Assembly: GCA_964372235.1 (NCBI GenBank)
Contig: CAYJQD010000003.1
Span: 1-43,928 of the forward strand
Direction: 5' to 3'
DNA: 43,928 bases
DNA from: an uncultured Methanosarcinales archaeon
GTDB lineage: Archaea; Nanobdellota; Nanobdellia; Woesearchaeales; GW2011-AR9
The notes beneath the pieces are model-generated. The model was not told the DNA's origin and searched no databases. It saw only the letters and a program-made list of their open reading frames with translations. The position numbers and the translations under genes were made by a program. Of this stretch, positions 16,495-43,928 are shown piece by piece. The number at the start of each line of letters is the position of its first letter. The stretch's first letter is position 1.

Positions 16495-16496
16495 GT

Positions 16497-26730: not shown

Positions 26731-27909
26731 TTATTTTTGTACAATGATAGCTGCTTCTGATTTTAGTATTGGAAGAGGTTGATAACCAAATATAGCTTGT
26801 ATCTCCGCTTGGGAAAGAACACGATTATACAATTGTACTTCGTCAACGTAACCATCCCAAGATTTAGCATCTACTCCGGGATTAGGTCCAACTTTGCTGC
26901 TCGTTCCCAGATAAATAATATTCTGGAATCCTTCCGCTTCAGGAGTAAGATATTCTTCAGCAGCGATAGGAAGTTCTATTCCGTTTACGTATACTTTCAT
27001 TTGTTTGGTGGAAAGATCAAGAGTAAATGCTACATGTCTCCAGGCATTGATTTCAACCATTGGAAATGTACCTGCTATCTGCTGCGTGGGCAGCAGCCCT
27101 GCTAAAATTTTTTTATGAGTATTTCCATCATCATATTCAAAGATGATGTTATTGATTCCACCTATCGATGAAGGAGAAACAGATAAACGCCAAGAGAGAG
27201 GACCGTTCTGGGAAGTTAGCTCGGAGCTAGAATATTGAGGAAATTGGTCAGGCTTGACCCAAGCTGCAAAAGTCATCTTCGAAAGAAAATTGGGAAAAAA
27301 GATCTGTACATAATCATCTTGGCCATCGAAAAGAAAAGATTTTCCAATTTTTCCCGGAGCATTTACCGCGCCATTGAATAATACGCCATCGTTGTTATTT
27401 ACCAAATCATTTGCAGTAGTGCTAACAACATCATCTCCGTCCCACCATCCTACTAAGCCGTTATACACGGGAGTGTATTTTGCGAGGGCCGCCAGACATT
27501 TTCCTTCTAAGCAACCTACCTCACAAGTACTGGTCTTCTGCGTATATTTATTACCGTCACAAGAATATTCTTCTAGCCGATTTTCGGAACAACTATTGGC
27601 AAGAGTTCTTGATTTTATTCCACCATAAGAATATCGTAAATCGACACCGGTTGGGTTGGAAGAACAGCTTATCCAAGTCAAGGATTGTATTTGTTGCCGT
27701 GTTGCTCGAATCTTGTTTGAACTTTCGCCCGTAAATCGGTAAGCCAAAGCTTTGCCAGCTAAGGCAGCATTATCTTCTGCCATCACCGCATCAAACTCTT
27801 CATCGGATAAATTTTCTAATTGTGAAAATAATATTTCATCGGAAACTTTTGGCGCACAGCTTACTGTTAAGAGGATAATCAATACCAGAGCAACATTTTT
27901 AACCATCAT
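26731..27909 (-). CDS. secreted lipoprotein with LamG/concanavalin-A-like lectin domain
   Basis: Lipobox LTVSC. LamG_3 pattern LVGWWDGDD...GKSFLFDGQDDYVQI...MTFAAWVKPD...WRHVAFT...KVYVNGIE...WDGYVDEVQLYNRVLSQAEIQ. Confidence 0.75.
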   Translation of the reverse strand: MMVKNVALVLIILLTVSCAPKVSDEILFSQLENLSDEEFDAVMAEDNAALAGKALAYRFTGESSNKIRATRQQIQSLTWISCSSNPTGVDLRYSYGGIKSRTLANSCSENRLEEYSCDGNKYTQKTSTCEVGCLEGKCLAALAKYTPVYNGLVGWWDGDDVVSTTANDLVNNNDGVLFNGAVNAPGKIGKSFLFDGQDDYVQIFFPNFLSKMTFAAWVKPDQFPQYSSSELTSQNGPLSWRLSVSPSSIGGINNIIFEYDDGNTHKKILAGLLPTQQIAGTFPMVEINAWRHVAFTLDLSTKQMKVYVNGIELPIAAEEYLTPEAEGFQNIIYLGTSSKVGPNPGVDAKSWDGYVDEVQLYNRVLSQAEIQAIFGYQPLPILKSEAAIIVQK

Positions 27910-27950: not shown

Positions 27951-29468
27951 TTATCCTTTTACGTTCCCGATCGGTTTCAAGGCCACCACTGGACGAGTAA
28001 TACCTGCTTTATCCAGAGTATCAACAACAACGTCAATATCTTTGTATGCCGCGCCGGCTTCTTCCGCCAAGCCAGCCATAGTCACAGCATGAACGTAAAT
28101 ACCTTTCTTCTCCATATCCTTCTGCAATTTATCGCCGCGGATCTCTCGTTTGGCTTTAGCTCTGCTCATCGTTCTTCCTGCGCCATGCGCAGTAGAAGCA
28201 AAAGTTTCATCTGCACCATCGGTTCCAAGCAAAAGATACGATCCGGTTTCCATACTGCCACCAAGAATAACCGGCTGCCCAATCTTCGCATATTTTTTTG
28301 GTAGCTCTGAAGCTCGAGAAGGACCAAAAGCGCGAGTAGCTCCCTTTCTGTGCACGAGTAATTCTCGTTCTTTTCCATTCACTTTGTGCTTTTCTAATTT
28401 AGCGATGTTATGAGCAACATCATACACTAAGTTCATCTCCATCTCTTCTGCCGTCTTTCCGAAGACCTGGCTGAATACCTTTCTGATTTGATGAGTGATA
28501 ACTTGCCGATTCGCGAAAGCCATATTAGCGGCGCAAGCCATAGCTTTGTAGTAATCTTGTCCCTCCGGAGAATTAAACGGTGCACAAGCTAATTCCTTGT
28601 CCAGAATCTCAATGCCATACTTAGGCATGACTTCTAAAAATAATTTCAAGTAATCCGAACCAATCTGGTGTCCGAAACCGCGGCTGCCACAGTGTACCAT
28701 GATAACTATCTGCCCGGGCTTGGTGATGCCCATTACCTTTGCAGCATTATGGTCGTAAATATTTTCTTTCTTAACTTCCTGGATCTCAAGATAATGATTT
28801 CCTGAACCTAAGGTACCAAGCTGGTCAAAACCTCGCTTAGTGGCTTTGTCAGATACTTTACTAGGATCAGCCTGAGGTATTTTACCATGGCTTTCGATAT
28901 GATCTATATCTGAAGGCCAGGCGTAGCCTTTCTTTAAACACCATTGGGCACCATCTTTCATGACTTCCTTGAATTCTTCCTTGCTGACTTTGACAAAACC
29001 CTTGCAACCGACTCCGGCAGGGACTGCTTTGTAGAGTTCATCAACTAGCTGTTTGATGCGAGGTTTTACTTCATTGACAGTAAGGTTGGTGGTGATTAAT
29101 CTCATACCACAGTTGATATCGAAGCCGATACCGCCTGGAGAGATGACCCCGCCTTCCTTCGGATCAAACGCAGCAACTCCGCCAATTGGGAATCCGTAGC
29201 CCCACTTGTCTCTTTCTAACCCTTAGTTAGCAAAGATATGACCATCGGGCATGCAATATGCATATTTTTGGATTCCCGGCAGATTTGCCACGTTTGAAAT
29301 CTGGTTGTACACTCCCGCATCCATAGCATCAATAAGTTCTTTTGTGCCAATAATCCTGGCCGGAACACGCATTCCTTTTTTGAAGGAAGCAGGTAATTCC
29401 CAGGTAGTGTCATTTACCTTTTTTAATTCCGGTGGAGGACCAATCGGCTGACCTTCTTGCTCTTCCAT
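27951..29468 (-). CDS. rtcB: RNA-splicing ligase RtcB, single reading frame interrupted by a 33-nt insertion carrying an in-frame TAA
   Basis: ORF 29223..29468 (..AYCMPDGH) and ORF 27951..29105 are in the same frame. The stretch between them translates as WGYGFPIGGVAAFDPKEGGVISPGGIGFDINCG. Removing 29205..29237 restores the family motif PD-x-H-W-GYGFPIGG. Confidence 0.8.
29205..29237 (-). other. 33-nt in-frame hairpin insertion with a TAA stop in its loop
   Basis: The RNA reads AUCUUUGCUAACUAAGGGUUAGAAAGAGACAAG. Stems UCUUU/AAAGA and CUAAC/GUUAG are separated by one bulged G. The loop is UAAGG, and its first three nucleotides are the stop codon (29223..29225). Confidence 0.85.
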
Positions 29469-29501: not shown

Positions 29502-30131
29502 TTAAAGCTTTTCCTTGTTAACAGTGATTTGGGTAGAAGCCATTGGTAAGTACGAAGCAAGTGCTTCTTCCAATTTTTGCTTTTTCTTGGGATGAAGAAA
29601 ACCAACTTCTTGTTGGTAGTTTAAGATATTTTCTTTTCCGCAAATAGTCAACCGCCAAATAGTCCTATTTTTCTTCTTAGCCAGCTGCGAAGGGATACCT
29701 AACTTAAGGAGCTCTTCCTTAACCTGAAGAATTCCGCGTTCATTACAACATTCTAAACCGATTAATCGGCTTTTTCTGGGTTGATTTTCAACCCATCCTT
29801 CACAATCAAAAAAAGCTCGTAACCAGGATTTTACTTGTTCTTTTGATAATTCTGGCATTTTCCATTCGTAAGAATAGTAGGAGAAATCTTTGGTTAAAAT
29901 ATAGTAAATCTCTTTATTTTGAAGTATGCTTCTGCCTTCGATGATACGGGGTTCGAGACCAAATACAGCTTTAAACTTTTGCTGAAAATCCTTCAACAAA
30001 ATATCATTTGTATTTCTAAAACCAATGTAGTAATATTTGTGCTTTTGATGTTCAGGATTCTTAATGACATAACCATCACCACAGAGATAACCATGAATTG
30101 CAGCAAGATTTTCCTCAAATTTCATTTTCAT
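29502..30131 (-). CDS. free-standing LAGLIDADG homing endonuclease (two-motif type)
   Basis: LAAIHGYLCGDGYV and LRAFFDCEGWV are two LAGLIDADG motifs about 95 aa apart. The likely ATG is at 30131 (MKMKFEEN). The gene ends 33 nt upstream of the rtcB ATG. Confidence 0.7.
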   Translation of the reverse strand: MKMKFEENLAAIHGYLCGDGYVIKNPEHQKHKYYYIGFRNTNDILLKDFQQKFKAVFGLEPRIIEGRSILQNKEIYYILTKDFSYYSYEWKMPELSKEQVKSWLRAFFDCEGWVENQPRKSRLIGLECCNERGILQVKEELLKLGIPSQLAKKKNRTIWRLTICGKENILNYQQEVGFLHPKKKQKLEEALASYLPMASTQITVNKEKL

Positions 30132-30325
30132 CCATCGCTTTGTGAAACTACATAAATGATTTTCTTTTCTAAGACAATTATAATTCAGTAGTTGAAGCTG
30201 GAAAGAATGAAAATGAAGAGAAAATCTTAGTGGATTATAGTTTACGATAAACGCGGAGCAACCAATAAGAGTCAAGGATTATAAAGATCATCCAAAGAAT
30301 GGCCCAAAATCCGTAGGTTTTACTT

Positions 30326-32032: not shown

Positions 32033-33202
32033 TCAAAACACTTTCTTTCTACTTTTCTCTGCTCTCAATTTCCGCTTCAAGGCATTCTTAGCGTTATCGA
32101 AGGTCTTGTGTAAAGCAGTCTCAATGCGCCAGTCGTATTCGGTAACCGTAATGCTTTGTCCGGGGGCATCTACACGCAGAGAGATGGAATACTTTCGCTC
32201 ACGGCCGCTTTTAGTATGATCCTTGATGTGCACCACCATGGAGAAATCATCCTGAATTTCCCGCTGTAGCTTGAAGGCTTCGTTGGATGCGATCTTCTGC
32301 ACTGCTTCTTTCTGATGAGCTAACAAACCGACGTCATTCAAGCCCACAAAACGGATGTTGAAATTTTCAGGAATATTCAGGCTTCCTACTAAACGCAGTA
32401 CGTTCTTCAAAGTAAGCAATCCTTCAAACTTTTCTCCGTCCATGACGATGGCGCTGGAAATGTTAGCCTTTCCCATTGCGCCAATTACGTCTGATAAACG
32501 AGCTTTTCGAGAGACGGTAAGCATATTCTGATTGGTGCTGAACGATTTGATGGGCAGCATGGCTAAATTAGGCTTGTCAGATTCTGACCCTTTAGAGCCA
32601 CCGCTTACTTTCTCAAACTTGGTGGACGTCTCTCTGGTAGGAGCCCAGGCCAAATATTTCTGCAGCAAGTCGCGGAAGCTGACGATGCCATACAATTTTT
32701 TCCCTTCAAAAATAGGAACTTGATCGACACGAGCTTTATGCATCACTTCCGTAGCTTTGCTGACGGGATCATCTTTTTCGATCTTCTCACCTTTCACTAA
32801 TTTAACGTCAGCAACAGTGAATGATTTTGTTTCTGGAAGATCTGCCGCTAACTTCGCTAAATCCAAGGCAGAAAGAACACCGACAATTTTTTTGTTGCTT
32901 TCTACCGGCACAAAATCGCTATCGGCCTTAAATAAAGCATAAGCAGTTTCAATCACATCAGCATGCTCATTCACAAGAGGAGTGCGGTGCACAAAATTAT
33001 GTATTTTCGCTTTAGTGACATCTAAACGAGATCGTAGTAACCCTTTTTTTTCTATGACGCCAAGATATTTGTCTTTCTTAAAAATTAAGCCATGACGCTC
33101 ATCATATTTATGTAATTGACCGATCATTTCTGACACAGCTTGTTCGGAATCAAACGAGAGAAATTCAGATTTTATTGCTGGAGTTATTTCCATGTCATCC
33201 AC
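32033..33202 (-). CDS. four-CBS-domain protein fused to a C-terminal HPF/RaiA (S30AE)-like domain
   Basis: Four CBS-like units in aa 1-275. aa 281-380 (32063..32362), NIRFVGLN..AVQKIASNEAFKLQREIQDDFSMVVHIK..KYSISLRVDAPGQSITVTEYDWRIETALHKTFDNAKNALKRKL, follows the beta-alpha-beta-beta-beta-alpha pattern and the D-x-Y/W-x-A-[IL]-D/H..F/L..L..KL ending of hibernation-factor proteins. Confidence 0.55.
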   Translation of the reverse strand: MDDMEITPAIKSEFLSFDSEQAVSEMIGQLHKYDERHGLIFKKDKYLGVIEKKGLLRSRLDVTKAKIHNFVHRTPLVNEHADVIETAYALFKADSDFVPVESNKKIVGVLSALDLAKLAADLPETKSFTVADVKLVKGEKIEKDDPVSKATEVMHKARVDQVPIFEGKKLYGIVSFRDLLQKYLAWAPTRETSTKFEKVSGGSKGSESDKPNLAMLPIKSFSTNQNMLTVSRKARLSDVIGAMGKANISSAIVMDGEKFEGLLTLKNVLRLVGSLNIPENFNIRFVGLNDVGLLAHQKEAVQKIASNEAFKLQREIQDDFSMVVHIKDHTKSGRERKYSISLRVDAPGQSITVTEYDWRIETALHKTFDNAKNALKRKLRAEKSRKKVF

Positions 33203-33345: not shown

Positions 33346-34065
33346 TCACTTCACACTATATCCAATTTCCTGCTTCCCGCCGGCGTAGGATTGGAAGATG
33401 ATCCATTCGATTTGGAAGGTCGCTCCTATATTTTCGTAGGTAAAATTTTGTTGTTCTACAATAGGGTCGCTCTTGATGCCATTTACTTTGAGGGTAACCT
33501 GATTCGGCTCTAAGAAGTGAATGCTGACATTGGTTTGAACTCCATTGATCTGAATCTGTTGTTGCTCGCCTACTTTAAGATTATAGATGGTTTTTTCTTC
33601 TTCTGCTTCTTCATCTTCCTGATTTTCTGCTATAGCCGAATACTTAGGCTCTGGAGCCGGCGCTTCAGAAACATTTTCAAAAATATTGGCTGGTTTTTCC
33701 TGGCATTGCCCTTCCCAGCATCCCCATTCACAATCTTTTTTGCTGATAAAAGAGCAGTCTTCTTTTTGGTATCCTCTGCGAAAATCATCTATACATTTGA
33801 AACCTGTAGTGCAAATTTCCGCAGGTCGGCAGGTGCCATTGACACAACCTCGTTCACATTTTTCCGGTCTCCCAAAAGTGCAGTTCTCAGCCTGAAAACG
33901 CATATAATTCTCATCTACACATTCAGAATGAGGTGTACATTTGAGGGAGATAACGCTGGCCTCGTCCTCTGGAGCTGGTTCTAGAGAGGTAGGACTTTGG
34001 CAAGAAACCAGAAATAAAGCTAATATCAAGACCACGATGACCTCTTTTTGAGCTACTTTACTCAT
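33346..34065 (-). CDS. secreted lipoprotein with duplicated Cys-rich modules
   Basis: Lipobox LVSC. Two repeats end in CERGCVNGTC and CEWGCWEGQC, followed by an acidic linker and a beta-rich C-terminus. Confidence 0.55.
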   Translation of the reverse strand: MSKVAQKEVIVVLILALFLVSCQSPTSLEPAPEDEASVISLKCTPHSECVDENYMRFQAENCTFGRPEKCERGCVNGTCRPAEICTTGFKCIDDFRRGYQKEDCSFISKKDCEWGCWEGQCQEKPANIFENVSEAPAPEPKYSAIAENQEDEEAEEEKTIYNLKVGEQQQIQINGVQTNVSIHFLEPNQVTLKVNGIKSDPIVEQQNFTYENIGATFQIEWIIFQSYAGGKQEIGYSVK

Positions 34066-34166
34066 AATTTTACGTCTAAATCCATTTTACTATATAAAAT
34101 TGTTTTACTCACTAGTTAGTGATTAATTTAGTAAAATTTATAAAGAAATCCTTCAAAAAGAGCGTA

Positions 34167-34634
34167 ATGGCAAAAGAAACGGCAGATAGAATTATTGACG
34201 AAGCCATGGAATGCGTGCATGAAGGAGACTATGAAAGAGCATTACAAGTCTTTTATTTATGCCAAGATTATAACAACCCTCGCTTCTTGCATGGGAAAGC
34301 GACTGCGTTACTGTTGGGTGCTGAAAAACTCGATCTGAGAATTATTGAAGAAGTAGCAGGATTATACGAACAAGCTAAAAGTCTAGATTCTAACTGGATC
34401 GAACCGTACTTAATGCTTGGCTTGACATACTCTAAAAAAGCCGATTTAGAGATAGCACAACTGGAACAAACTTCCTCAATAGAATCCAATTTACCTATCA
34501 TCAACACCTTGCATCTAGCAGAAGTAAATTTACGCAAAGCTTTGGAGTTAAATCCACATTTTGATTTTCGAGTAAAGATGGATCTGGAGTACGTCCAGGA
34601 TCGAAAAGAATTTTTCCAAGGAGAGCTGCATTGA
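34167..34634 (+). CDS. TPR-like helical repeat protein
   Basis: Ala/Leu/Tyr spacing typical of TPR (ALQVFYLCQDYNN.., AGLYEQAKSLDSNW.., AEVNLRKALELNPHF). The ATG at 34167 is preceded by TATA-like TTTATAAAG about 25-30 nt upstream; the track start at 34119 is GTG. Confidence 0.5.
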   Translation: MAKETADRIIDEAMECVHEGDYERALQVFYLCQDYNNPRFLHGKATALLLGAEKLDLRIIEEVAGLYEQAKSLDSNWIEPYLMLGLTYSKKADLEIAQLEQTSSIESNLPIINTLHLAEVNLRKALELNPHFDFRVKMDLEYVQDRKEFFQGELH

Positions 34635-34635
34635 G

Positions 34636-35310
34636 ATGGTACCCGAAATTCGTTTGCCTGCAAATGCAGTGAGAGACAAGCGATACAGACAAATTTTCAA
34701 CGACGTCATTAGAAACAAATCGTTGTTGGAGCAGCCTATTGCTCCGATAGAAATACCATGGGATTCTGATCTCGCCGCGCATATAGATGAGATAGCAAGA
34801 TGCAATAGATATAGACTTTTCAGAAAAAATAACCTTACACCAGACTTTTTTTTAATAGGTTACAATCAGGAATCTATGGATAAAACAGTATCCTTTCTTG
34901 AAGCCTTGGCATTGCAGGGAATATTTGAAACAAACTCATTTCTTGCCGAAGGTTACAATGGCAAAGCGCCATTGATCAGCCAAGTTAATCCTGTGACTAA
35001 CCCTAGATTAAATCGTGTATTTGCAACCCATCAAATAACCCCTAAAGGGAATGATCTATATTCTCTGCGGGAAAATCAATACAAATATTTTAGTTCTCAG
35101 AACGAAGATGAAGTATTAGCAGCCATAGACTGTTTGGTGAGGAGGGAACGGGATTATTTCTTACCCGCTATATTAAAAGAAAAAGAAAAACAAAGACCCG
35201 TCCTTTTTTTAGCTGACGTGGTACACACACTTTCCTCTAATTTTCCCATTGTGTTAAATAATAATGGAGTGACATATGCAGTGTGGGTGCCGCATCCTTT
35301 GAAAAAATAA
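34636..35310 (+). CDS. hypothetical protein
   Basis: The ATG lies 1 nt after the upstream stop. No motif recognised. Confidence 0.5.
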   Translation: MVPEIRLPANAVRDKRYRQIFNDVIRNKSLLEQPIAPIEIPWDSDLAAHIDEIARCNRYRLFRKNNLTPDFFLIGYNQESMDKTVSFLEALALQGIFETNSFLAEGYNGKAPLISQVNPVTNPRLNRVFATHQITPKGNDLYSLRENQYKYFSSQNEDEVLAAIDCLVRRERDYFLPAILKEKEKQRPVLFLADVVHTLSSNFPIVLNNNGVTYAVWVPHPLKK

Positions 35311-35315
35311 GAAAA

Positions 35316-35921
35316 ATGAAATACGCAATATTTTCAGATATACAAGGAAACTATAAAGCATTACGAAGATTTTTTGACGAAGTTAACCAAACTGTTGATC
35401 GATACCTCTGCCTTGGTGATATTGTACAAAATGGCAGCTCCTTTGAAGATAACTTGTGCATCGATCTTGTAAAAAAGCATGGATGTCTAGCTGTCCGGGG
35501 CAATCATGAAGATAGAGTTCTGGCCAATAGGGAGACATCAAGAAAAAAAATCTCCCTTGAAAATCTTGAATTTATTTCTTCCCTGCCTTCAGAATTAATA
35601 GTTGATAAAAAATTTTTCTTAGTACACGCCCCTTCAGGGAAAAGAATAGTTTCATCTAAACAAGCAGAGGAAGAATTTATTAAAATGCCTCAGGAGATTA
35701 CATTCTACTTATATGGACATTCGCATAAACCAATGCTTTTCAGCAAAGATGAAAGTAAAATAAAACAGGAAAGCATAGCTTATCATAACCAAAATTATTT
35801 ATCTCCTACCTCACAATATATGATTAATCCAGGAGGAGTTGGCCTTTACTTTGGTCTTCCGCAAACCTATATGATTTTTGATGACGATTCTAGAGAACTA
35901 TATTTCATCCGCCTTTCTTGA
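35316..35921 (+). CDS. metallophosphoesterase (calcineurin-like, YfcE/MJ0936-type)
   Basis: IFSDIQGN (motif I), CLGDIV (GD), VRGNHED (GNHE), HAP, GHSH. The ATG at 35316 lies 5 nt after the upstream stop. Confidence 0.75.
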   Translation: MKYAIFSDIQGNYKALRRFFDEVNQTVDRYLCLGDIVQNGSSFEDNLCIDLVKKHGCLAVRGNHEDRVLANRETSRKKISLENLEFISSLPSELIVDKKFFLVHAPSGKRIVSSKQAEEEFIKMPQEITFYLYGHSHKPMLFSKDESKIKQESIAYHNQNYLSPTSQYMINPGGVGLYFGLPQTYMIFDDDSRELYFIRLS

Positions 35922-35930
35922 TTAATTTCT

Positions 35931-38900
35931 TTAGCTACTGCTGCTCGAGGTGGGAAGCCTACCTTTGTCGATCCACTGATTGATAGGTTGATCAACCAAT
36001 GATTCGTCTATCAAATCCAGATCTATCTTTTCCAACATTTCCTGTTCCACATATTCAACCACTTGATCAGAAATTTTCCAGCCAGTAGTTCCCTTGGCTT
36101 TCTGAATATTAGTTATTTGGGAGCTAGCTTGCATACCTATAATTTTTCCTTTAGATTTATCGTATTGAAATTCAAACCCGAATGCTCTATTGGGCAGGTC
36201 AGCGATAAGATAATTATCATATTGTCCATCATATACTAAATCACCTTTCTCTCCTCCGATTATAGTTCCAAGAGCCTGCCTATGATGAGTTTTATCACTT
36301 TCAGTGAGGAAGACTACTTGGACCCTTCCATCGTCGTGTATGTAGGCAATCGCCTTCCCACCATAGATATCTTCTCCAAGGAATTCTAACTTATTTTGAA
36401 ACACTTCATCAACATTCTGTGGGCCGACACTATCATAAAGATTACTCACTGTTCCCTCGTATCCTTGAACAGTTGTAACTACTTTGGGCTCTGGAAGATC
36501 GGCAGGAGGCAATTCAAACACTATTTCTTCTGAAGGTAGATTCAGGGGTAAACAAGGCCCAGCTATAGATAGGCCTGCTATAGCTCCTCCAACCGCAGCT
36601 CTACCGACGGAGCAAGATTCAAGTTTAACTTCCGGTAATACTATCTGGCCTTCTTCTATCAACCTAGCCCTGCTTTGATCTAATTGCGCAATAATTTCAG
36701 CATCGTCAACTTCCTTATCAAACCATAACGTTCTTTTCTGCTTCCATTTTCCTTCTTCAAAGTAATAATCCTTACCGGCTATTTCAAACGCATTATCACC
36801 CTTTTGAATTACTGCCGCTTGAGCTTTAGGCACTCCTGCTTTTTCCCTTGCTTTGTTTAGAATTGCTACAGTTACCTCATCAGCTTCTTTATCTCCAAAT
36901 AGTGTGTCGACTAGACCTTCTCGCGGCTGCACCCATTTTCCTGTTTTGGTATCAAATATGTATTTACCAGTCGAAGTTTCAAAGAATCGTTCAGCATGCG
37001 TTCCCGGCATTTCTTTCGCTACTTTCTCAGGATCTATTCCTAACTTATACATCAACTGCAGCCGGCTATCTTCATTTCTGATAATATTCAGCACGTCAGG
37101 GGTAGCTTGATAACCAGCAGCGTGCATTGCTCTCTGCAGTTCAGCTATGTCAGCATTCTCAACTACGTCGGCAGAGCGAGGCAGCTCTTGTTTAAAGCGT
37201 ACTGCTTTCGCTTCAGGAATCTTGGTCGATACGAGTAACGGGTCAATCCCTTGCTCATACATTCTTCTTAGTTGGTGCTCTCCTGGCCTTATGTAAACCA
37301 ACACCTCCGGAGAAATATCGTAGCCAGTAGCATCCAAAGCGATCAATAATTCTTTTTGAGTCGCGCTCTGGACTGCTTCTGCAGCAGGAGTCAGATCACG
37401 TTTAAACGCTAGGGCGTTCTCTGCTCCAGAACGTGGAGCGGTCATGACATTATCAACCCATGCTTGTAACAATTCTTGTTTTTGTGCAGGTGTTCTTCCT
37501 TCCTTGAAACTCCAATCGGCGACATCGACGAACAAGACATCACCAGCTTGGTATTGTTTTCCCCCAAGGTGATGCGGTTCGGTCAGGACCATAGCCTGAA
37601 GATCATGCGGATTCCAGCCGGCATCTATCGCTCTGGCCAGATCCTGCGTAAATAGCTCAATCTTTTCTGGAGTAAAGTATTGAACTACTTCTTCATCGGT
37701 GAGATCAAAGAAGTGTCTCCCTTTTATTTTATCAGAAACTAAATATGGAACTCCGTCGACTTTGTATATCCCGTAATATTGAGGACAAGGCACCAGCTTG
37801 CATGCTTCCCTGGCTTTCTCAAATTCGATAAAAAGCCCATCCACATTTGACTCTAAATTTCCGCGCAATATTCGCTCACCGGGCAAGGCTTTAGCAGTCT
37901 TGAAAGCCAGATCATCTCCTACCCCAGGAAGGTCAGCTTCGTATACCAAGCCGACAGTTCCTTCTCCAAGTTTGTTGGTAAAGGCTACCTCAGCATCTTG
38001 CACCTGCACGGTAGGATGACGTTGTACTATCTTCTCTAAGTTGATCTTCTGTTGAGCATAGCCGCCCTTTACTGTGGCAATCTCCCGTGAGATCTGAGAA
38101 GGCGTTTCTACTTTTCTTTCCAAAAGAAGAGGTTCTGATTCAAAAAAACGTGGTTCTTTAATTCTTACGCCGGAAATATCCTCCGTTTTCCCAACAATCT
38201 CATCAAGAGTAGAATCACCTAATTCTTCTGCTGGCAATGGTTCTGCTGCTCTCGCCGCTGAACAAGAAGCTAATCCGTAAATGGCGCCGCCGGCAACTGC
38301 ACAAGGCTCTATTACATCTGATCTAACCCTTGGCCCTGATTCCCGTGGAATTGGCACATCTCCTAAACGAGAATCAAGATTTAGCCAGGGCTGGTCAGGA
38401 TTGATGCCATACTTCTCAAAAATTTGCCGTTTTATCTTATCAAATTCTGGACCGGTTTTTCCTCCGGTCACAGTATATATTTCAGTTAGCGCTTCAGCAC
38501 GAGCTTGTCCAAAAGAAGGTGCATTTACGTCTTTTGCCTGAATATATTTAATTTCATTTTCAGTAAGCCCTTTGTAGAACACATTTCCAGGATCTTCTGC
38601 CCAGGAGACACCTCTACCCACTGGCTTAGTAAACAGGGGAATTTCTTCATCTAACAACGTAGGGTTTATTCCTGCTAGGATTTTTTCTACTTGATCTTGG
38701 TGAGCAGCTTCAACATACAAGACAGTATTATCCGTTCGCCGGGCAAATGCCGCCTTATTTCTAGATGTCTTTATCTTAAATGGGATCTGCTGCTCGGTCA
38801 ATTCTCTTCCAACTTTTTCCAATATCACCTGAGAGGAATCAAAATTCTTAGAGTTTATGTAAAATCTAATTCTATTATTATGCGGCAGGTCTTCTACACT

Positions 38901-41900
38901 CTGAATGGCTATCCAACCTCCCTGTATTCCTCCTGGAGAAATATCGACTTTATCTGGATCTATTTTATTCTGCAGCCCAATAGAAGCATGAAGCTGGTTT
39001 ACTTTGCCTTCTTCAATAATATTTGGAGATGTTTTGTGATTATAACTGTCGTAGAAATGTTTGAAGATTTCTTCATCAGATTTTCCTTGCAGGTTAGCTA
39101 AATTTTTATTTTCAAAAATATCTTTCACATTTTGCGGCTTAGGAGCAGCCGTGACGACTTCACCTTCTCTTTGTAAAGTATCAAAATTCAGATCTGTTTT
39201 TCTGAAACGTACCGTGTCTCCGTTAGCATACGTGAGGCGAAAAAATTCAGAATCCTCTCCGGCGTATTTGCCTGCATAAGGCCTGCCACTAGTTCCAGCA
39301 ATCCTTATCTGATCTCCTTCTTTGATAATACTGCTTTGATCTAATCTATCGATACGCAAGGTATTTGTCTCTGGTTTACTGCCGAGCAGTCCAAAGAATC
39401 TCTCTTTCTCACCCGTTTGAATAGTTATCAATTGCTCATCAGCTTTCAGATATTTACCACCGTACGAATTTCCACTTTTGGAACGAACGCGGAAAGATTG
39501 TCCTTCTTCGAGATCGGCGATGGCTCTTTGATTCGTCTCAACTGGCGGCGCAGTTATTTTTTCAGGAGCTGCTCCCGGTCTGGCGGCTGGCGCTCCCGGA
39601 CACGGCGCTAGACCATAAATCGCTCCGCCGGCAACGGCGCAAGAGTCAACCACATCAGAAACGCCTCTGCCGGTCCTTTCTCTTTTGGCCTTTTGAAAGG
39701 TAGTAAAGTCTATGTCAAACCCGCCGCCGGTAAGTGCTTCTCTTACTTTTTCATCATAAACCTGCCGGAGTAAGGATGGTTCGCCCGGTATTGCAAATCC
39801 TGCGTCTAGAACCTTTGCTTCCAATTTTCCTTCAGGCGTTTTGGTAAGGATGATGTTGCCCCAATGGAAATCTCCAATTTCTATGTTTTCAGCTACCAAA
39901 TCATCAGCAAGCGTATCAACAGCTTCAACTACATCATCGAATTGGCCTTGCGCTTCTGCTCTCAAGAGGATTGCTTCTCCTTCAACGTCATTGGCTAATC
40001 TGTACTCTTCTAACTGTTGCGGCGTTAATCTTTCACGTATAGTCTGAGCTAAAGTCTGACCTTCAATTTTTTCAGCAATGTAATAAGTATCTTCAGCCTG
40101 ATAAACTCGCGGAGCTGCACCGCGATCTGCGAGGCGATTCAAAAAGTCAGCTTGTTCAGGGAACGTATTAGCAGCACCTTCTAAAGACCTATCAATATTT
40201 CTAACTTTTATAATTGCCGGTTTTTCGACATTAGGTAAATTGACCCTTACCGCTTCTGGAATTTCTAGAACCACACCTTCACCACCGCTACCAAGAAGTA
40301 ATTTTTCCTTATTGACTAATTTTTCCAAATCTGATTCAGGTATTCGAGAGCCAGGATGTGTATCTAATACATCGACAATTTCATTCCAGTCGTCCTGCCC
40401 CTGAACTCGCGGGGGAAGATTTACTTGTTTTTGAGGAGCACTGATTGGTACTTCGGCGGTAGCGATATCTGGGACTCCTGGTTTAGTGATGACTTGAACA
40501 CCTTCTTTTCTAGTCTTTAGATCTTTAGTAGTCTGCTCTACAATTTCTTCAAGATCAATTTTTTCCGGAGCTTCTTCGACCTTAGCCGATGGAGTTTCAG
40601 CGACAGTTCTTGCGCACGGAGCTAATCCATAGATCGCTGCAGCGGCTAAACTACATGGATTAACTGCTTCAGTTTTTGCTCCATTCAATACCTCATCAGT
40701 TTTTCTTCCAGGACTATTGATCAAATCTTCTGCTTTCCTAACTTCTCCCAAGAATTCTTCTTTAGTAACTAACTTTCCATCAATGCGAACTCCTTCAAAA
40801 CGTACTCCGTCGATATCTATTGTCTCAATTGGAACGTCGTCAAGATTGTATCGTAATCTTCCGTCAGGAGCTAACTCCCAGCGCGCTCCTAATGGTTCAA
40901 GCTGAGTACGTAAAGAATCGAGTTCGTCTGGAATGATTTGTGGACCGGCGACTCCCACTGCTTCTAATCTTCTTGCTTTGACGTCATTGGCTGCAACATA
41001 TTCACTATTAGCAAGATCTTCTAAAAGCATCTCTTCTAGTTCTGCTTCTGCTCTTGCCTCAGTAGTGTCTATCCTCCGTAAAATTTCATTTCCTTCTTCC
41101 ACTTCTATCCGCAATTGAGGAGGAGCATCTTCAGGAACTTCAAAACGCAGTCCTGTTCCTTCTGGTTCGACGCGCACAGCAGGATTACTTGCCAACTCAT
41201 CAAGTTTAGCAACTCCCTCTGCGCCAACTGCATCATACACCTCATCTCCCTCCCTTGAAACTTCTGCTTGTTGCAATCTCTCACCTAATGCAGATTTGCT
41301 TCGCTCAAACTTCCTATTAAGATACGCATCATCTACTTTCTGAGCTGCAACTTCCAAATTTTCCTTAGCCGCATCTAACTTGGTTCTGGAAAGAATTGCT
41401 TCCGGAGTATCTCCCACTAGTTGTGCATTTTTGCTCGCATCCGCAAATTCATCTGCCACTCGTCTAAATTCATCCTCTGCTCTCAAGACTTCTTCTCCAG
41501 GACCATCACCAAGTACTTTTCCAAACGTAGAATCCCAAGCTCTTCTTACCACGTCCTTATTCGGTCCAGCGATATTTGATACCCGTAATAAATCATCTAA
41601 CTCGTCAATGTTCTCAGTTGATTGCACTAGTGCTTCCTGAGCATCAGAAATTTTAACTAAGGATTGTCCTTCTGCAACAGTATCGCCGCTGGCGCGTGCT
41701 GCTGCTAACTCCCGTTGCGCTTGGTTAAGATTTTGAGTCTGAGTTGCAATATTATCAATTTCAACATTTCTAGCCTTGGCTATATCACGATCAAATTTAC
41801 CAAGAGGAGTATTTATTACTCTCTTGAATTTCTGATATTTGCTGGCTTCCCAACCCGCTATGATTTCCGCTTGAAGCGCTTCTTTAGCGGCATCAAACGC

Positions 41901-43928
41901 TTTCCTGGCTTCTACCGCCGCTTCTGCCGTATCAGCTGCTCGTTCAGCTGCTCGGGCTGCCACATATGCTTCTCTAGTTCCTTTTGAAGCGTAGCGATAA
42001 GCATCAAGGACGGTGTCTCCTTTTTCTAACGCTTTGGCTAACTTTGCAATTTTTCCTAATTTTACAGCTCCGCTAGCTCCTCCGCTAAGGAATTCAGTAG
42101 CTAGATCTACAGGAAGAAGAACATTATAAAATTCGCTAATAGCAGTATCTCTGAATATCTGTTCGGTTTCACTGCTATAAGTAACACCTACCCTCTCTAA
42201 ACCGCCCGCAATTGTTCTTCCAACCGTTTCTCCAGTATAAACAGCGATAACTTCTCCTAACACATTTTGATTTAAACTGTCTACTGTACGCTGTACACTT
42301 TTAGCTCCTGCACAATCGGGACAGACTGCCAATGCTTCTTTATATTTTGCTGCTGCTTCGCCGGCAAGCTTATCCCTATTAAGGCTCCGTGCATTCTCGG
42401 CATCGCGAACGATAACGTTAAATTCAAGCTCCCGCCGCTCTGCTTCATATTGTTCTTTACGCTGTTGAGTCAAAGCAGTTTTCGCCAGTATATCATCCGA
42501 AGCTTCTAAAAATTTCTTATCTTCTTCAGAAAATACGGACCTGGTCAAATCAAATTCTAACAAAGCCGCAGCAGGCTCGTCTGCTACACCGATTTGAAAA
42601 TCCGATGTAGAGGAAACCACGCTGCCGTCAGCAGCCCTATCTATCCCGGCACGAGCATCAGCAAAGGCCTGGCCAGCAGAAAGACCTCGTTTTTCGTAAT
42701 CTCTCAATTTCAAACGCAAGCTATGCAATTGATCAATTTGCCTTTCCTGTTCATCGAGAGCTCGTTTATCCAGCTCATTTCTGACATCTTCAATTCCAAA
42801 AGCTTCTGCACCTGCTTTAGAACCGCTATCTGCAATAAATGAAAAAGAATGCCCTGCTAACGCTACCGAATCTGCAACAGCATCAAGAAAGTTACCTGAC
42901 GTACCTATATTTTTCCAGGCATTAGCAACAGCTCTTCCTGCTCCTAACTCTTCTTCCTCTTGTAGAAATCTTTTTTTCAGCTTAGCTTGTTCTAACTCTT
43001 TCTCACGTTCTTCTAATACTCTCTTAGCATGACTAGTCTGAGCGATCCTGGCTTTCTTCAACTTCGCCAAATCAGGATCAAGTAAGGCTTCTGGAACATT
43101 TTCTGACCCTTGCAGCTTTTGTGCTAGTTCAGGATTATCTGCTTCAATCTCTTGCAAGATCGCTCCGGCTTCATTACCATAACCGTAATCATACAACAGC
43201 GCTACTTGATCTAATGTTTCATCTCTTTGCTGACGAACTGCTCGATCCACAATATTCTTGGCATGATCATCAGATACTACTTTTTGTCCGGCTAAAACAG
43301 AAACATCAATGGTTTCTAACACCACCACGTTTCCTTTCTCATCTTTACCCAGTTTGACCACTTCTTTTATGCCACCCTCCGCAGCTATGCTGGGCCCAGA
43401 AAGAATGTTTTCAACTTCTTTATATTTTCCAGCTAAGAGAGCAACTTCTGCCGCTACATCATCTTTCCCTTCCATCCGATATTTTTCAATAAGAGCTTGG
43501 TTTTGTGAGTCCAATCCCTTTAAATCTTTATCAAGTTGCTCAAGCTCGCGTTGGGTTTCCACAGTGGCAGCGGCATCAGCGCGGAAATCTTCCCGAAGAG
43601 TATATACTTCAGGATCTAATTTGTTATCAAAAAAACCACGAGGAGCATGCCTATTTATGAGATGGATAACATAATCGGGATCGGAATTAAATCTATCTTC
43701 ATCAATAGCAAGAAAGATAGATTTTTTTCCGCCTCCAACTAACCATTCTTTTTCTAACTTAGACCAAATTTCGTTTCTTAATTGGTTGCGCCGACCCCTT
43801 TGTGCTTCCAGAGTGTGTTTTAAATCAACTTCTCTTTTTTTGCCGTTATCTATTTTTCTCTTAGTGTCTTCAATTTCTCTTTTGTCCGTCGCAACGATAC
43901 CTTTAGATCTGAATAGCAAACGTCTGAA
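35931..43928 (-). CDS. giant multidomain protein (over 2,660 aa). The N-terminus lies beyond the window. It has a coiled-coil arm, two APH/ChoK-like kinase folds and several internal repeats.
   Basis: The frame is open to the window edge; the track start is only a TTG. aa ~1-1088 are helical and rich in Ala, Glu, Lys and Arg. Kinase-like fold 1 has LGSGGEGVV, AIIKV, IGDFHWGNII and VLDAG (about 39780..40300). Kinase-like fold 2 has LGEGTVGLVY, AFKTAK, NPHDLQAMV and FVDVADW (about 37500..37980). Four Cys-bracketed modules mark the boundaries. Confidence 0.85.
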   Translation of the reverse strand, partial: FRRLLFRSKGIVATDKREIEDTKRKIDNGKKREVDLKHTLEAQRGRRNQLRNEIWSKLEKEWLVGGGKKSIFLAIDEDRFNSDPDYVIHLINRHAPRGFFDNKLDPEVYTLREDFRADAAATVETQRELEQLDKDLKGLDSQNQALIEKYRMEGKDDVAAEVALLAGKYKEVENILSGPSIAAEGGIKEVVKLGKDEKGNVVVLETIDVSVLAGQKVVSDDHAKNIVDRAVRQQRDETLDQVALLYDYGYGNEAGAILQEIEADNPELAQKLQGSENVPEALLDPDLAKLKKARIAQTSHAKRVLEEREKELEQAKLKKRFLQEEEELGAGRAVANAWKNIGTSGNFLDAVADSVALAGHSFSFIADSGSKAGAEAFGIEDVRNELDKRALDEQERQIDQLHSLRLKLRDYEKRGLSAGQAFADARAGIDRAADGSVVSSTSDFQIGVADEPAAALLEFDLTRSVFSEEDKKFLEASDDILAKTALTQQRKEQYEAERRELEFNVIVRDAENARSLNRDKLAGEAAAKYKEALAVCPDCAGAKSVQRTVDSLNQNVLGEVIAVYTGETVGRTIAGGLERVGVTYSSETEQIFRDTAISEFYNVLLPVDLATEFLSGGASGAVKLGKIAKLAKALEKGDTVLDAYRYASKGTREAYVAARAAERAADTAEAAVEARKAFDAAKEALQAEIIAGWEASKYQKFKRVINTPLGKFDRDIAKARNVEIDNIATQTQNLNQAQRELAAARASGDTVAEGQSLVKISDAQEALVQSTENIDELDDLLRVSNIAGPNKDVVRRAWDSTFGKVLGDGPGEEVLRAEDEFRRVADEFADASKNAQLVGDTPEAILSRTKLDAAKENLEVAAQKVDDAYLNRKFERSKSALGERLQQAEVSREGDEVYDAVGAEGVAKLDELASNPAVRVEPEGTGLRFEVPEDAPPQLRIEVEEGNEILRRIDTTEARAEAELEEMLLEDLANSEYVAANDVKARRLEAVGVAGPQIIPDELDSLRTQLEPLGARWELAPDGRLRYNLDDVPIETIDIDGVRFEGVRIDGKLVTKEEFLGEVRKAEDLINSPGRKTDEVLNGAKTEAVNPCSLAAAAIYGLAPCARTVAETPSAKVEEAPEKIDLEEIVEQTTKDLKTRKEGVQVITKPGVPDIATAEVPISAPQKQVNLPPRVQGQDDWNEIVDVLDTHPGSRIPESDLEKLVNKEKLLLGSGGEGVVLEIPEAVRVNLPNVEKPAIIKVRNIDRSLEGAANTFPEQADFLNRLADRGAAPRVYQAEDTYYIAEKIEGQTLAQTIRERLTPQQLEEYRLANDVEGEAILLRAEAQGQFDDVVEAVDTLADDLVAENIEIGDFHWGNIILTKTPEGKLEAKVLDAGFAIPGEPSLLRQVYDEKVREALTGGGFDIDFTTFQKAKRERTGRGVSDVVDSCAVAGGAIYGLAPCPGAPAARPGAAPEKITAPPVETNQRAIADLEEGQSFRVRSKSGNSYGGKYLKADEQLITIQTGEKERFFGLLGSKPETNTLRIDRLDQSSIIKEGDQIRIAGTSGRPYAGKYAGEDSEFFRLTYANGDTVRFRKTDLNFDTLQREGEVVTAAPKPQNVKDIFENKNLANLQGKSDEEIFKHFYDSYNHKTSPNIIEEGKVNQLHASIGLQNKIDPDKVDISPGGIQGGWIAIQSVEDLPHNNRIRFYINSKNFDSSQVILEKVGRELTEQQIPFKIKTSRNKAAFARRTDNTVLYVEAAHQDQVEKILAGINPTLLDEEIPLFTKPVGRGVSWAEDPGNVFYKGLTENEIKYIQAKDVNAPSFGQARAEALTEIYTVTGGKTGPEFDKIKRQIFEKYGINPDQPWLNLDSRLGDVPIPRESGPRVRSDVIEPCAVAGGAIYGLASCSAARAAEPLPAEELGDSTLDEIVGKTEDISGVRIKEPRFFESEPLLLERKVETPSQISREIATVKGGYAQQKINLEKIVQRHPTVQVQDAEVAFTNKLGEGTVGLVYEADLPGVGDDLAFKTAKALPGERILRGNLESNVDGLFIEFEKAREACKLVPCPQYYGIYKVDGVPYLVSDKIKGRHFFDLTDEEVVQYFTPEKIELFTQDLARAIDAGWNPHDLQAMVLTEPHHLGGKQYQAGDVLFVDVADWSFKEGRTPAQKQELLQAWVDNVMTAPRSGAENALAFKRDLTPAAEAVQSATQKELLIALDATGYDISPEVLVYIRPGEHQLRRMYEQGIDPLLVSTKIPEAKAVRFKQELPRSADVVENADIAELQRAMHAAGYQATPDVLNIIRNEDSRLQLMYKLGIDPEKVAKEMPGTHAERFFETSTGKYIFDTKTGKWVQPREGLVDTLFGDKEADEVTVAILNKAREKAGVPKAQAAVIQKGDNAFEIAGKDYYFEEGKWKQKRTLWFDKEVDDAEIIAQLDQSRARLIEEGQIVLPEVKLESCSVGRAAVGGAIAGLSIAGPCLPLNLPSEEIVFELPPADLPEPKVVTTVQGYEGTVSNLYDSVGPQNVDEVFQNKLEFLGEDIYGGKAIAYIHDDGRVQVVFLTESDKTHHRQALGTIIGGEKGDLVYDGQYDNYLIADLPNRAFGFEFQYDKSKGKIIGMQASSQITNIQKAKGTTGWKISDQVVEYVEQEMLEKIDLDLIDESLVDQPINQWIDKGRLPTSSSSS
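36552..36614 (-). repeat. Cys-bracketed Gly/Ala-rich module, copy 4 (longer, diverged)
   Basis: EVKLES-CSVGRAAVGGAIAGLSIAGPC-LPLN. Confidence 0.7.
38262..38303 (-). repeat. Cys-bracketed Gly/Ala-rich module, copy 3
   Basis: VRSDVIEP-CAVAGGAIYGLASC-SAAR. Confidence 0.85.
39600..39641 (-). repeat. Cys-bracketed Gly/Ala-rich module, copy 2
   Basis: GVSDVVDS-CAVAGGAIYGLAPC-PGAP. Confidence 0.85.
40614..40655 (-). repeat. Cys-bracketed Gly/Ala-rich module, copy 1 (protein-level repeat)
   Basis: TEAVNP-CSLAAAAIYGLAPC-ARTV. Confidence 0.85.

Follow-up and report, generated by a model that had tools for sequence, protein, structure and literature searches.

A giant modular protein of DPANN archaea with kinase-like and phospho-lyase modules as a candidate tool for host manipulation

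What use might an archaeon with a small genome have for a giant protein that combines several enzymatic domains? This question is raised by positions 1 to 43,928 (43,928 nucleotides, nt) of contig CAYJQD010000003.1 (assembly GCA_964372235.1; hereafter, the window), in which a single reading frame at the window edge encodes what we call the giant protein. An earlier note, made from the DNA letters, had proposed that this is a modular host-interaction or effector-delivery protein rather than a housekeeping one. Judging from alignment with its orthologues, the open reading frame (ORF) is the C-terminal ~78% of a ~3,400-amino acid (aa) protein of Nanoarchaeota (DPANN), and this protein is a strong candidate for a tool with which the host cell is manipulated. 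The modular enzymatic cargo, the DPANN relatives, the signal peptide of the orthologues and the variation of the cargo are all in line with the proposal, whereas a GC anomaly and a recent acquisition of the gene are not borne out.

The reading frame, its relatives and its locus

The frame (minus-strand frame 1) comprises 2,665 codons and one stop, with no other stop through to the window edge. Given a stop-codon probability of 0.058 per codon, derived from the base composition of the window, a stop-free run of this length has a probability of about 1e-69. The frame is colinear with that of the orthologue P0001 over aa 9-1021 (62% identity), 1429-1600 (52%) and 1855-2664 (68%), through the stop codon, so that a frameshift or chimera is unlikely. 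The uninterrupted 8-kb frame described in the earlier note is a real coding frame, as known from the assembled contig rather than from raw reads. The composition of the protein is also as described: Ala, Glu, Lys and Arg together account for 38.3% of the first ~1,090 aa vs 29.6% of the remainder (Pro, 2.4% vs 5.5%), and the ~200-aa C-terminal domain terminates in ...GRLPTSSSSS. The GC content, which had been judged by eye to exceed that of the neighbouring genes, does so numerically (0.431, against an average of 0.400 across the other 33 ORFs), but this is no compositional anomaly (z=1.06): GC at third codon positions is below average (0.312 vs 0.371), and the excess resides in codon position 1 (0.595), owing to the abundance of Ala, Glu, Gly, Val and Asp in the protein. 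Horizontal transfer, considered on the basis of GC and codon deviation, was rejected on these amino acid-driven figures.

A search with the whole protein retrieved eight relatives of 1,545-4,460 aa, of which all the named ones are labelled Nanoarchaeota and only one has a Pfam annotation, HopA1. Those with a complete N-terminus, except the distant P0008, share a core of ~1,900 aa that covers aa 1-1091 of the window protein. Because the first residue of the window protein aligns at about residue 766 of P0002, some 770 N-terminal residues appear to be missing and the full protein would be ~3,400 aa long. The missing N-terminus is supplied by the orthologues: those that are N-terminally complete start with a Sec-type signal peptide, e.g., MKNKINQLAALFFIYLMFISPFSLA/VDE. 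Apart from this signal peptide and one poorly conserved segment of the core, no transmembrane helix was detected in the giant protein or its orthologues. The core has no match in Pfam or NCBIfam, NCBIfam gave no useful match for module D either, HopA1 is the sole match of the whole protein in Pfam, and neither the core nor the linkers and the C-terminal domain described below have characterised relatives; the protein as a whole was thus not placed in a characterised family.

An exhaustive HMMER search with residues 1466-2665 yielded 188 proteins (E<=1e-3), including giants of up to 5,374 aa; the named ones come from Nanoarchaeota or Candidatus Woesearchaeota, and one of the matches is labelled 'T3SS effector HopA1 family protein' in NCBI (T3SS, type III secretion system) and another 'predicted Ser/Thr protein kinase' in IMG. 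The family is rare, with four loci in a scan of one genome per species for 185,579 GTDB species and two in a scan of JGI metagenomes, all of them with the partner gene, signal peptide and linkers. By the labels of the retrieved sequences, the family is confined to small symbiotic (DPANN) archaea, given that all the named relatives are metagenome-assembled genomes of Nanoarchaeota or Woesearchaeota; the notion of a giant protein in a small-genome archaeon therefore holds. Literature searches found no description of this family. One locus labelled 'uncultured Methanosarcinales archaeon' (contig CAYIZT010000005.1) is a complete Nanoarchaeota-type locus with the partner gene, a 3,786-aa giant and four linkers; the label may reflect a binning error or a host bin contaminated by the symbiont, and could hint at the host.

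The giant gene occupies a conserved chromosomal locus in the relatives. The syntenic order is ribosomal protein L15e, a gene of ~320-340 aa, the giant gene, zero to three convergent small genes, a Cys-rich gene of ~240 aa and a CBS-domain gene, and the context between the L15e and CBS genes is kept in six independent assemblies. The window genes 33346-34065 and 32033-33202 are orthologues of the ~240-aa and CBS genes (47-69% and 83-85% identity, respectively), and the genes 34636-35310 and 34119-34634 match the convergent pair of locus L003. Because the downstream genes are orthologous to those of loci L001 and L003, the window represents the same chromosomal locus, cut just inside the giant gene; a gene at a conserved locus has not been recently acquired. 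In the orthologous loci, the ~320-340-aa upstream gene (the partner) is co-oriented with the giant gene and abuts or overlaps its start. The N-terminus of the partner, M..KRGQVTIFLV.GIVILLL, resembles, by eye, an archaeal class III (pilin-type) signal, and its C-terminus is an Ig-like domain with weak matches to Big_9/PKD in Pfam.

Linkers and exchangeable modules

Eight of the 12 Cys residues of the window protein form four pairs, each around an Ala/Gly/hydrophobic stretch of 11-19 residues. These linkers, which were overlooked in the earlier note, split the protein into five segments (Table 1). The motif is absent from all other ORFs of the window in every frame; one looser Cys…Cys match, in a 113-codon frame near nt 3405, is dissimilar. 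Across the 48 unique copies collected from the family, on which all linker statistics are based, the pattern is P-C-(11-13 small or hydrophobic residues)-P-C, with an inner length of mostly 11-12 and with Pro before the first Cys in 26 copies and before the second in 24. The type-1 linker reads [VI]-S-D-x-V-[DEN]-P-C-[AN]-[VL]-A-[AG]-[AG]-A-I-Y-G-L-A-P-C and the type-2 linker reads L-P-x-C-S-[IV]-G-G-...-P-C-[LI]-P; the latter always precedes module E (see below), and the two thus move as a unit. Pro makes up 12.1% of the 25 residues downstream of the linkers, vs a background of 4.1%. The three type-1 linkers of the window protein are its most hydrophobic 14-mers (top 0.2-0.5% on both the Kyte-Doolittle and the Wimley-White scales). 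At the DNA level, these linkers share only 49-59% identity over 99 nt and no exact run longer than 11 nt, whereas the peptide is conserved in 48 copies, which argues for selection on the linker peptide; the same figures led us to reject DNA-level repeats at the linkers as recombination substrates. In an AlphaFold2 model of residues 1418-1900 (72-sequence alignment; mean predicted local distance difference test score, pLDDT, 82.3), the linkers that flank the lyase-containing segment (module C) are disordered along with their tethers (pLDDT 31-48), and the domains between them reach at least 90. The linker, of which no description was found in literature searches, appears from its recurrence in the family to be a conserved, previously undescribed motif that marks cassette boundaries.

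The modules between the linkers were delineated by segmenting the relatives at the linkers, clustering the segments and scanning all collected sequences with hidden Markov models (HMMs) of the modules. With L for a linker, the window protein is laid out as core-L-K1-L-SH3-SH3-lyase-L-K2-HEL-HEL-HP-HP-L-E. The orthologues are arranged differently: P0001 as core-L-BIG-L-SH3x3-L-K2-HEL-HEL-HP-HP-L-E, P0002 as core-L-K1-L-MP-L-K2-L-MP-MP, P0004 as core-L-(unverified module)-L-E-L, and P0007 as core-L-L-x-K1-L-K2-L. Thus, the cargo differs among orthologues with a common core and locus, and the linkers sit at the block boundaries. Other cargo of the relatives includes a GT2 glycosyltransferase and a weak GNAT match, and P0002, P0005 and P0006 carry an HExxH-containing module. 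The modular organisation with enzymatic cargo that was originally suggested is therefore corroborated, as two protein-kinase-like (PKL) kinases and a HopA1/LanY-family lyase, the latter above the Pfam gathering cut-off and confirmed by its fold, are found in one protein.

The best supported enzymatic module is the lyase, which matches PF17914 (HopA1) with a score of 51 bits (gathering cut-off 22.7; E=2e-13) over model positions 19-168 of 170. The lyase domain is modelled with a pLDDT of at least 90, and the best Foldseek match in the PDB is LxmY, a chain of the lexapeptide dehydratase LxmKY (9dk3_B; E=7.6e-11 over 292 aligned columns, probability 1.0), with matches also to HopA1 (4rsx; E=1.5e-8, probability 1.0) and, among class III synthetases, to the lyase domains of ThurKC (1.7e-3), PneKC and SalKC. 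Residues K1720, R1731 and D1733 are nearly invariant in 72 sequences. By profile score and modelled fold, the window lyase is a bona fide member of PF17914, with a predicted phospho-lyase activity. The HopA1-like LanY removes phosphate from phospho-Ser and phospho-Thr after phosphorylation by the APH-like LanK, the two forming a heterodimeric dehydratase, and PF17914 genes strongly co-occur with genes of APH-family kinases (PMC9486802, PMC12141560); the HopA1-type fold is common to the OspF/SpvC phosphothreonine-lyase secreted virulence effectors (PMC10604976). The lyase is preceded by the short duplicated beta-rich units of the earlier note (aa 1474-1535 vs 1536-1590), which are indeed duplicated and are predicted to form two SH3-like barrels, with Foldseek matches to tandem barrels of the Agenet/Tudor/KOW/Hfq type (E=4e-4).

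Both kinase-like folds that had been noticed are supported at the profile level. In 12 K1 sequences, D191, N196, D213 and G215 are invariant, and G53/E55/G56 and I78/K79 are nearly so (at least 90%). In both PDB searches, the K1 profile scored best against 7WJ6, the kinase of the lanthipeptide synthetase CurKC (E=6e-4), and then against ~130 further kinases with E<1; in NCBIfam, K1 comes closest to LanKC (E=6e-4), LanL and thiamine kinase, and single members weakly match APH, ABC1, RIO1, YrbL and Pkinase. From motif conservation and profile matches, K1 is a divergent, apparently catalytically intact PKL kinase, nearest to the lanthipeptide-synthetase kinases. In K2, the Gly-loop, K73, E98, D172 and D198 are invariant, 9 of 12 members match Pkinase (best E=1.8e-5), and the best PDB match is AXL (E=1.5e-4), in the N-lobe only. 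K1 lies in the block adjoining the lyase in the window protein and in P0014, and both reside within one inter-linker block in P0018; the narrow K1 HMM detected no K1 in other lyase-bearing giants, and P0025 contains both module types, with no core or linkers detected. A LanKC-like identity of the lyase-K1 block of P0018 was considered, given that the domain order of LanKC/LanL fits, and rejected as its K1 copy is devoid of catalytic motifs.

The C-terminal module E has no match in Pfam, NCBIfam or, by sequence, in the PDB. Neither the PDB (best TM about 0.2-0.27) nor the viral folds of BFVD contain a match at E<=1e-3 to its fold, which was predicted from a 31-sequence alignment with high confidence (pLDDT 93.4; predicted template modelling score 0.88). 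H70, K46, F31, G44 and Q130 are invariant, and Y19, N26, H69, D111 and S124 nearly so. A relative search with module E alone gave only two proteins. Across more than 30 clusters, the module is found at the C-terminal end of large secreted proteins (signal peptide, Pkinase and E; HEAT, GT2 and E; TPR and E) and in short proteins, 160-320 aa long, that begin with a hydrophobic signal; most carriers have fewer than 35 residues after it. Most of the closer relatives end in a [KRE]-[LI]-P-[ILVT]-x-x tail (RLPTSSSSS, encoded in the window within 35934-35990, ELPLAS, KLPLSP, EIPVTS), and this short conserved tail could be a C-terminal recognition signal.

Finally, a resemblance to the decapeptide repeats of Legionella DotG/IcmE (AGF/AGYSAxEL) is seen in the duplicated helical units of the window protein (…AGY-x-x-[ST]PEVL…) and in a comparable stretch of an orthologue module. 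The likeness is seen in the relatives P0004, P0007 and P0021, with a PDB match of the orthologue module at E=1.3e-4. A module of P0004 and P0007 that looked 'ART-like' by eye has DotG/IcmE repeat segments as its sole PDB match, and no claim of an ADP-ribosyltransferase is made.

Table 1. Features of the giant gene in the window (aa numbers refer to the window protein)
Feature	Coordinates	Strand	Remarks
Giant ORF	35931..43928	-	2,665 codons + stop; 5'-truncated at window edge; orthologues imply about 765-790 more N-terminal residues including a Sec-type signal peptide
Conserved core, C-terminal part (aa 1-1091)	40656..43928	-	Ala/Glu/Lys/Arg-rich, Pro-poor; 50-70% identity to orthologues
Linker 1, CSLAAAAIYGLAPC (aa 1092-1105)	40614..40655	-	core/cargo boundary
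Module K1 (aa ~1171-1429), protein-kinase-like	39642..40418	-	Gly-loop, VIK Lys, D-[FL]-H-x-x-N, I-D-x-G
Linker 2, CAVAGGAIYGLAPC (aa 1430-1443)	39600..39641	-	GVSDVVDS before, Pro/Ala-rich tether after; predicted disordered
Two tandem SH3-like (Agenet/Tudor/KOW/Hfq-like) beta-barrels (aa 1474-1590)	39159..39509	-	duplication z=8.7; fold
LanY/HopA1-type phospho-Ser/Thr lyase domain, predicted (aa ~1601-1849)	38382..39128	-	PF17914 match aa 1680-1847
Linker 3, CAVAGGAIYGLASC (aa 1876-1889)	38262..38303	-	predicted disordered
Module K2 (aa 1946-2173), atypical protein-kinase-like	37410..38093	-	Gly-loop, AxK Lys, alphaC Glu, D-x-Q, D-[VF]-x-x-W
Duplicated ~55-aa helical unit (aa 2193-2248, 2262-2317)	36978..37352	-	z=19.5
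Duplicated 'GKxYxFxxGKW' hairpin unit (aa 2311-2369, 2376-2429)	36642..36998	-	z=7.5
Linker 4 (type 2), CSVGRAAVGGAIAGLSIAGPC (aa 2439-2459)	36552..36614	-	always before module E in family
Module E (aa 2480-2665), orphan alpha/beta domain	35934..36491	-	nearly invariant F-L-T-E-x3-T-H-H; poly-Ser tail here

Possible functions of the giant protein

The reading that we favour, with middling confidence, is that the giant protein is a Sec-exported multi-effector host-interaction protein whose cargo would be delivered into the host. The ~1,900-aa core would be a stalk or delivery scaffold, and each of the interchangeable cassettes would have a Cys-bounded hydrophobic linker, then a flexible tether rich in Pro, and then a domain with an enzymatic or binding role. 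In the window protein, the cassettes would be a LanKC/APH-type kinase, the SH3 pair with the lyase, the atypical kinase with helical and hairpin repeats, and the orphan C-terminal domain. The protein might be exported and displayed on the surface of the symbiont together with the pilin-like partner, and the cargo modules might act inside the attached host cell. Because kinases need ATP and the giant protein is exported, the cargo is expected to act in the cytoplasm of another cell; likewise, the GT2 and GNAT cargo of the relatives needs cytoplasmic cofactors, so that the exported modules would be usable only inside another cell. With an episymbiotic DPANN archaeon, that other cell would be the host. 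The same reasoning has been used for MARTX toxins and type III effectors, and variability of the cargo between orthologues is to be expected of host-interaction or effector proteins. The kinase/lyase pair would phosphorylate Ser/Thr of a target and then beta-eliminate the phosphate, leaving irreversible dehydro-amino acids, a chemistry with precedents in OspF/SpvC/HopAI1-type effectors and LanK/LanY dehydratases. Targets could be bound by the SH3-like barrels and the repeat units, and the hydrophobic linkers may be flexible joints that could also be involved in membrane interaction and/or proteolytic release of the modules.

Several observations weigh against this reading. All the matches of K1 are below curated thresholds, and the K1 copies of P0018 (aa 2418-2580) and P0007 (aa 2706-2920) have neither a Gly-loop nor the D-x-H-x-x-N motif and are pseudokinase-like. 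K2 lacks the catalytic-loop Asn, with a D-x-Q motif instead, and the matches of its members to Pkinase are below the gathering score. The core contains no recognised translocation or pore-forming domain, no processing protease is conserved at the locus, and a role of the linkers as hinge, membrane contact or cleavage site is putative. The signal peptide and the partner gene are observed in orthologues only, the window ending before both; the product of the partner gene does not match the Pfam class III signal model, its likeness to pilins being seen by eye only.

A bolder version of the favoured reading, about which we are doubtful, casts the giant protein as an archaeal counterpart of multi-effector toxins. 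The linkers would insert or be processed and release modules, including a complete protein-level Ser/Thr dehydratase, into the host archaeon, or else the same enzymes would cross-link the linkers through thioethers and produce a giant ribosomal 'lanthi-protein'.

The latter idea can also be taken by itself, as a surface protein that modifies itself, which we deem improbable. K1, the lyase and perhaps K2 would dehydrate Ser/Thr residues of the giant protein or its partner, e.g., in V-S-D-x-V-x-P-C, and Cys would add to the products to form thioether (lanthionine-like) cross-links that render the linkers rigid or protease-resistant, with K2 compared to the kinase-fold LanX cyclases. The two Cys residues of the linkers are invariant, 23 of 48 copies have a Ser 6 residues ahead of the first Cys, and kinase and lyase reside on one polypeptide. 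Moreover, lanthionine formation can be controlled by the substrate once dehydroalanine or dehydrobutyrine is made, being merely sped up by LanK-LanY, and the kinase-fold RosX catalyses aminovinyl-methylcysteine (AviMeCys) macrocyclisation in class V systems (PMC12291118). However, most linker-bearing relatives have no lyase module in the available sequence (P0002, P0003, P0005, P0007, P0009), the matches of K2 are to Pkinase and not to APH/LanX, nothing resembling a leader peptide was identified, and the modification would have to precede Sec translocation.

About equally improbable is a processed polyprotein or adhesin in which the linkers, as internal signal- or anchor-like elements, are cleaved, lipidated or inserted, and the domains are displayed on the surface for adhesion or nutrient scavenging. 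The layout of a cassette, a hydrophobic segment followed by a Pro-rich tether and a domain, is that of an individual secreted protein; where module E forms a protein of its own, a hydrophobic signal or anchor at the N-terminus takes the place of the linker, and the SH3-like and Ig-like parts are compatible with binding. Against this, a lipobox ([LVI][ASTVI][GAS]-C after an n-region and an h-region) fits only 6 of the 48 linkers, and 24 of them have Pro at -1, on account of which the lipobox interpretation was rejected; the hydrophobic stretches of 11-13 residues are too short to span a membrane as transmembrane helices, and kinases have no ATP outside the cell.

We regard as very unlikely a polymorphic toxin that serves in competition between related archaea and has an adjacent immunity gene, even if a constant N-terminal region, variable C-terminal modules and a demarcating motif recall such systems (PMC3482391). 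The genes downstream of the giant gene are all convergent, none being co-oriented; two of them are kept in the window and in L003 despite different terminal modules (E vs K2/HEL); the cargo consists of several modules rather than a single terminal toxin; no orphan cassettes were seen; and there is no specific relationship between the Metallophos genes found near two giants with a lyase (E=0.11). Least credible, and largely refuted, is the view of the giant protein as a polyvalent protein encoded by an integrated virus or plasmid, or as the product of unrelated genes joined artificially in the assembly: single K1 members weakly match Kinase-PolyVal and LPD22 in Pfam and the multi-enzyme architecture is similar (PMC5512222), but the conserved chromosomal context, the ordinary composition and the colinearity with orthologues through the stop codon all contradict it.

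With respect to the favoured reading, the closest parallels come from several known systems. Like the MARTX toxins of Vibrio and relatives, the giant protein is a secreted protein of giant size in which a constant delivery scaffold is combined with a strain-variable array of linker-joined effectors; unlike MARTX, which use type I secretion, it is an archaeal protein with a Sec signal, whose core and Cys-bounded linkers are unrelated to theirs, and neither the window protein nor the full-length orthologues match the RtxA Gly-rich repeats or the C80 cysteine protease in Pfam or NCBIfam. The likeness to LanK/LanY of class V lanthipeptides (LxmKY, CaoKY) consists in the best structural match of the lyase, LxmY, and in the proximity of kinase and lyase, and that to the class III/IV LanKC and LanL in the best PDB and NCBIfam matches of K1. 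However, LanK/LanY is a cytoplasmic heterodimer encoded in a bacterial biosynthetic gene cluster, whereas here the two belong to one exported archaeal protein of 3,400 aa, in which a linker and two SH3-like barrels lie between them; no precursor peptide, LanD or LanC was found, and the neighbouring genes are housekeeping or unrelated. HopA1 of P. syringae and the type III effectors OspF/SpvC/HopAI1, which are secreted and act in the cytoplasm of another organism, are a parallel in that the lyase module of the giant protein belongs to PF17914 and matches the HopA1 fold, but the giant protein is not a stand-alone type III substrate, has no chaperone and brings its own kinases. Polyvalent proteins (PMC5512222) and polymorphic toxins (PMC3482391) similarly contain many conflict-type enzymatic domains, with recombined cargo behind a constant region and a junction motif, in contrast to which the giant locus is chromosomal and syntenic, with no evident immunity gene and with several cargo modules. 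In sum, this is a modular multi-effector giant of DPANN archaea with undescribed parts that resembles MARTX, polyvalent and polymorphic proteins without the defining features of each. Among DPANN themselves, very large surface proteins of Nanohaloarchaeota, the SPEARE proteins, were reportedly proposed by Hamm and colleagues in 2019 to function in host interaction. No serine-protease, adhesion or restriction-endonuclease domains of the SPEARE kind were detected in the giant protein, and there is no sequence relationship between the two.

Little is known of the molecules with which DPANN archaea hold on to their hosts, feed on them and manipulate them, and the giant family offers testable candidates, namely an export scaffold with a pilin-like partner, swappable enzymatic cargo, a kinase/phospho-lyase pair, a linker motif and the widespread module E, each of which is directly expressible and assayable. 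Descriptions of the kinase/phospho-lyase chemistry have so far come from bacterial virulence effectors and lanthipeptide biosynthesis and not from archaea. In the bolder reading, a DPANN symbiont would export a polyprotein whose dehydratase modules irreversibly edit host proteins.

Other genes of the window

The window consists of cellular DNA, with genes for MetRS, RtcB, ThyA, an M50 protease and guanylate kinase; scans for tRNA and Rfam families gave no matches in it. A Metallophos phosphoesterase gene (35283-35921, plus strand) converges on the giant gene, with 9 nt between the stop codons, and a Metallophos gene is also located downstream of the lyase-bearing giant P0008 (L004 19910-21148); a shared immunity or antidote gene of lyase-bearing giants was considered here and rejected, given that the two proteins are not specifically related.

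The region 10097-18896 (minus strand) appears to be a second operon in which a pilin-like leader gene is followed by genes for large secreted proteins. The 799-aa ORF 16497-18896 (minus strand) shares the ...KQGQVTIFIIIGIVILF N-terminus and a C..QGGYIYP motif with the upstream partner of the giant (27% identity over 168 aa, E=9e-8) and precedes two proteins with signal peptides (1,089 and 1,052 aa), the ORFs of which overlap by 31 nt.

The proteins encoded by 33346-34065 and 26731-27909 (both minus strand) start with textbook lipobox signals, …ALFLVSC/QSP and …LLTVSC/APK, respectively, which are noteworthy in a DPANN archaeon and contrast with the non-lipobox linkers of the giant. The former is the Cys-rich protein kept downstream of the giant gene in L001 and L003, and the latter carries a Laminin_G_3 domain. 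A free-standing gene of the LAGLIDADG_3 homing-endonuclease type (29502-30275, minus strand; E=4.9e-22) adjoins RtcB (27951-29105). Finally, 3300-4154 (minus strand) encodes a ribosomal RNA methyltransferase of the FmrO family (E=9e-26), a family that is familiar from the self-resistance of aminoglycoside producers and is unexpected in a reduced archaeal genome.

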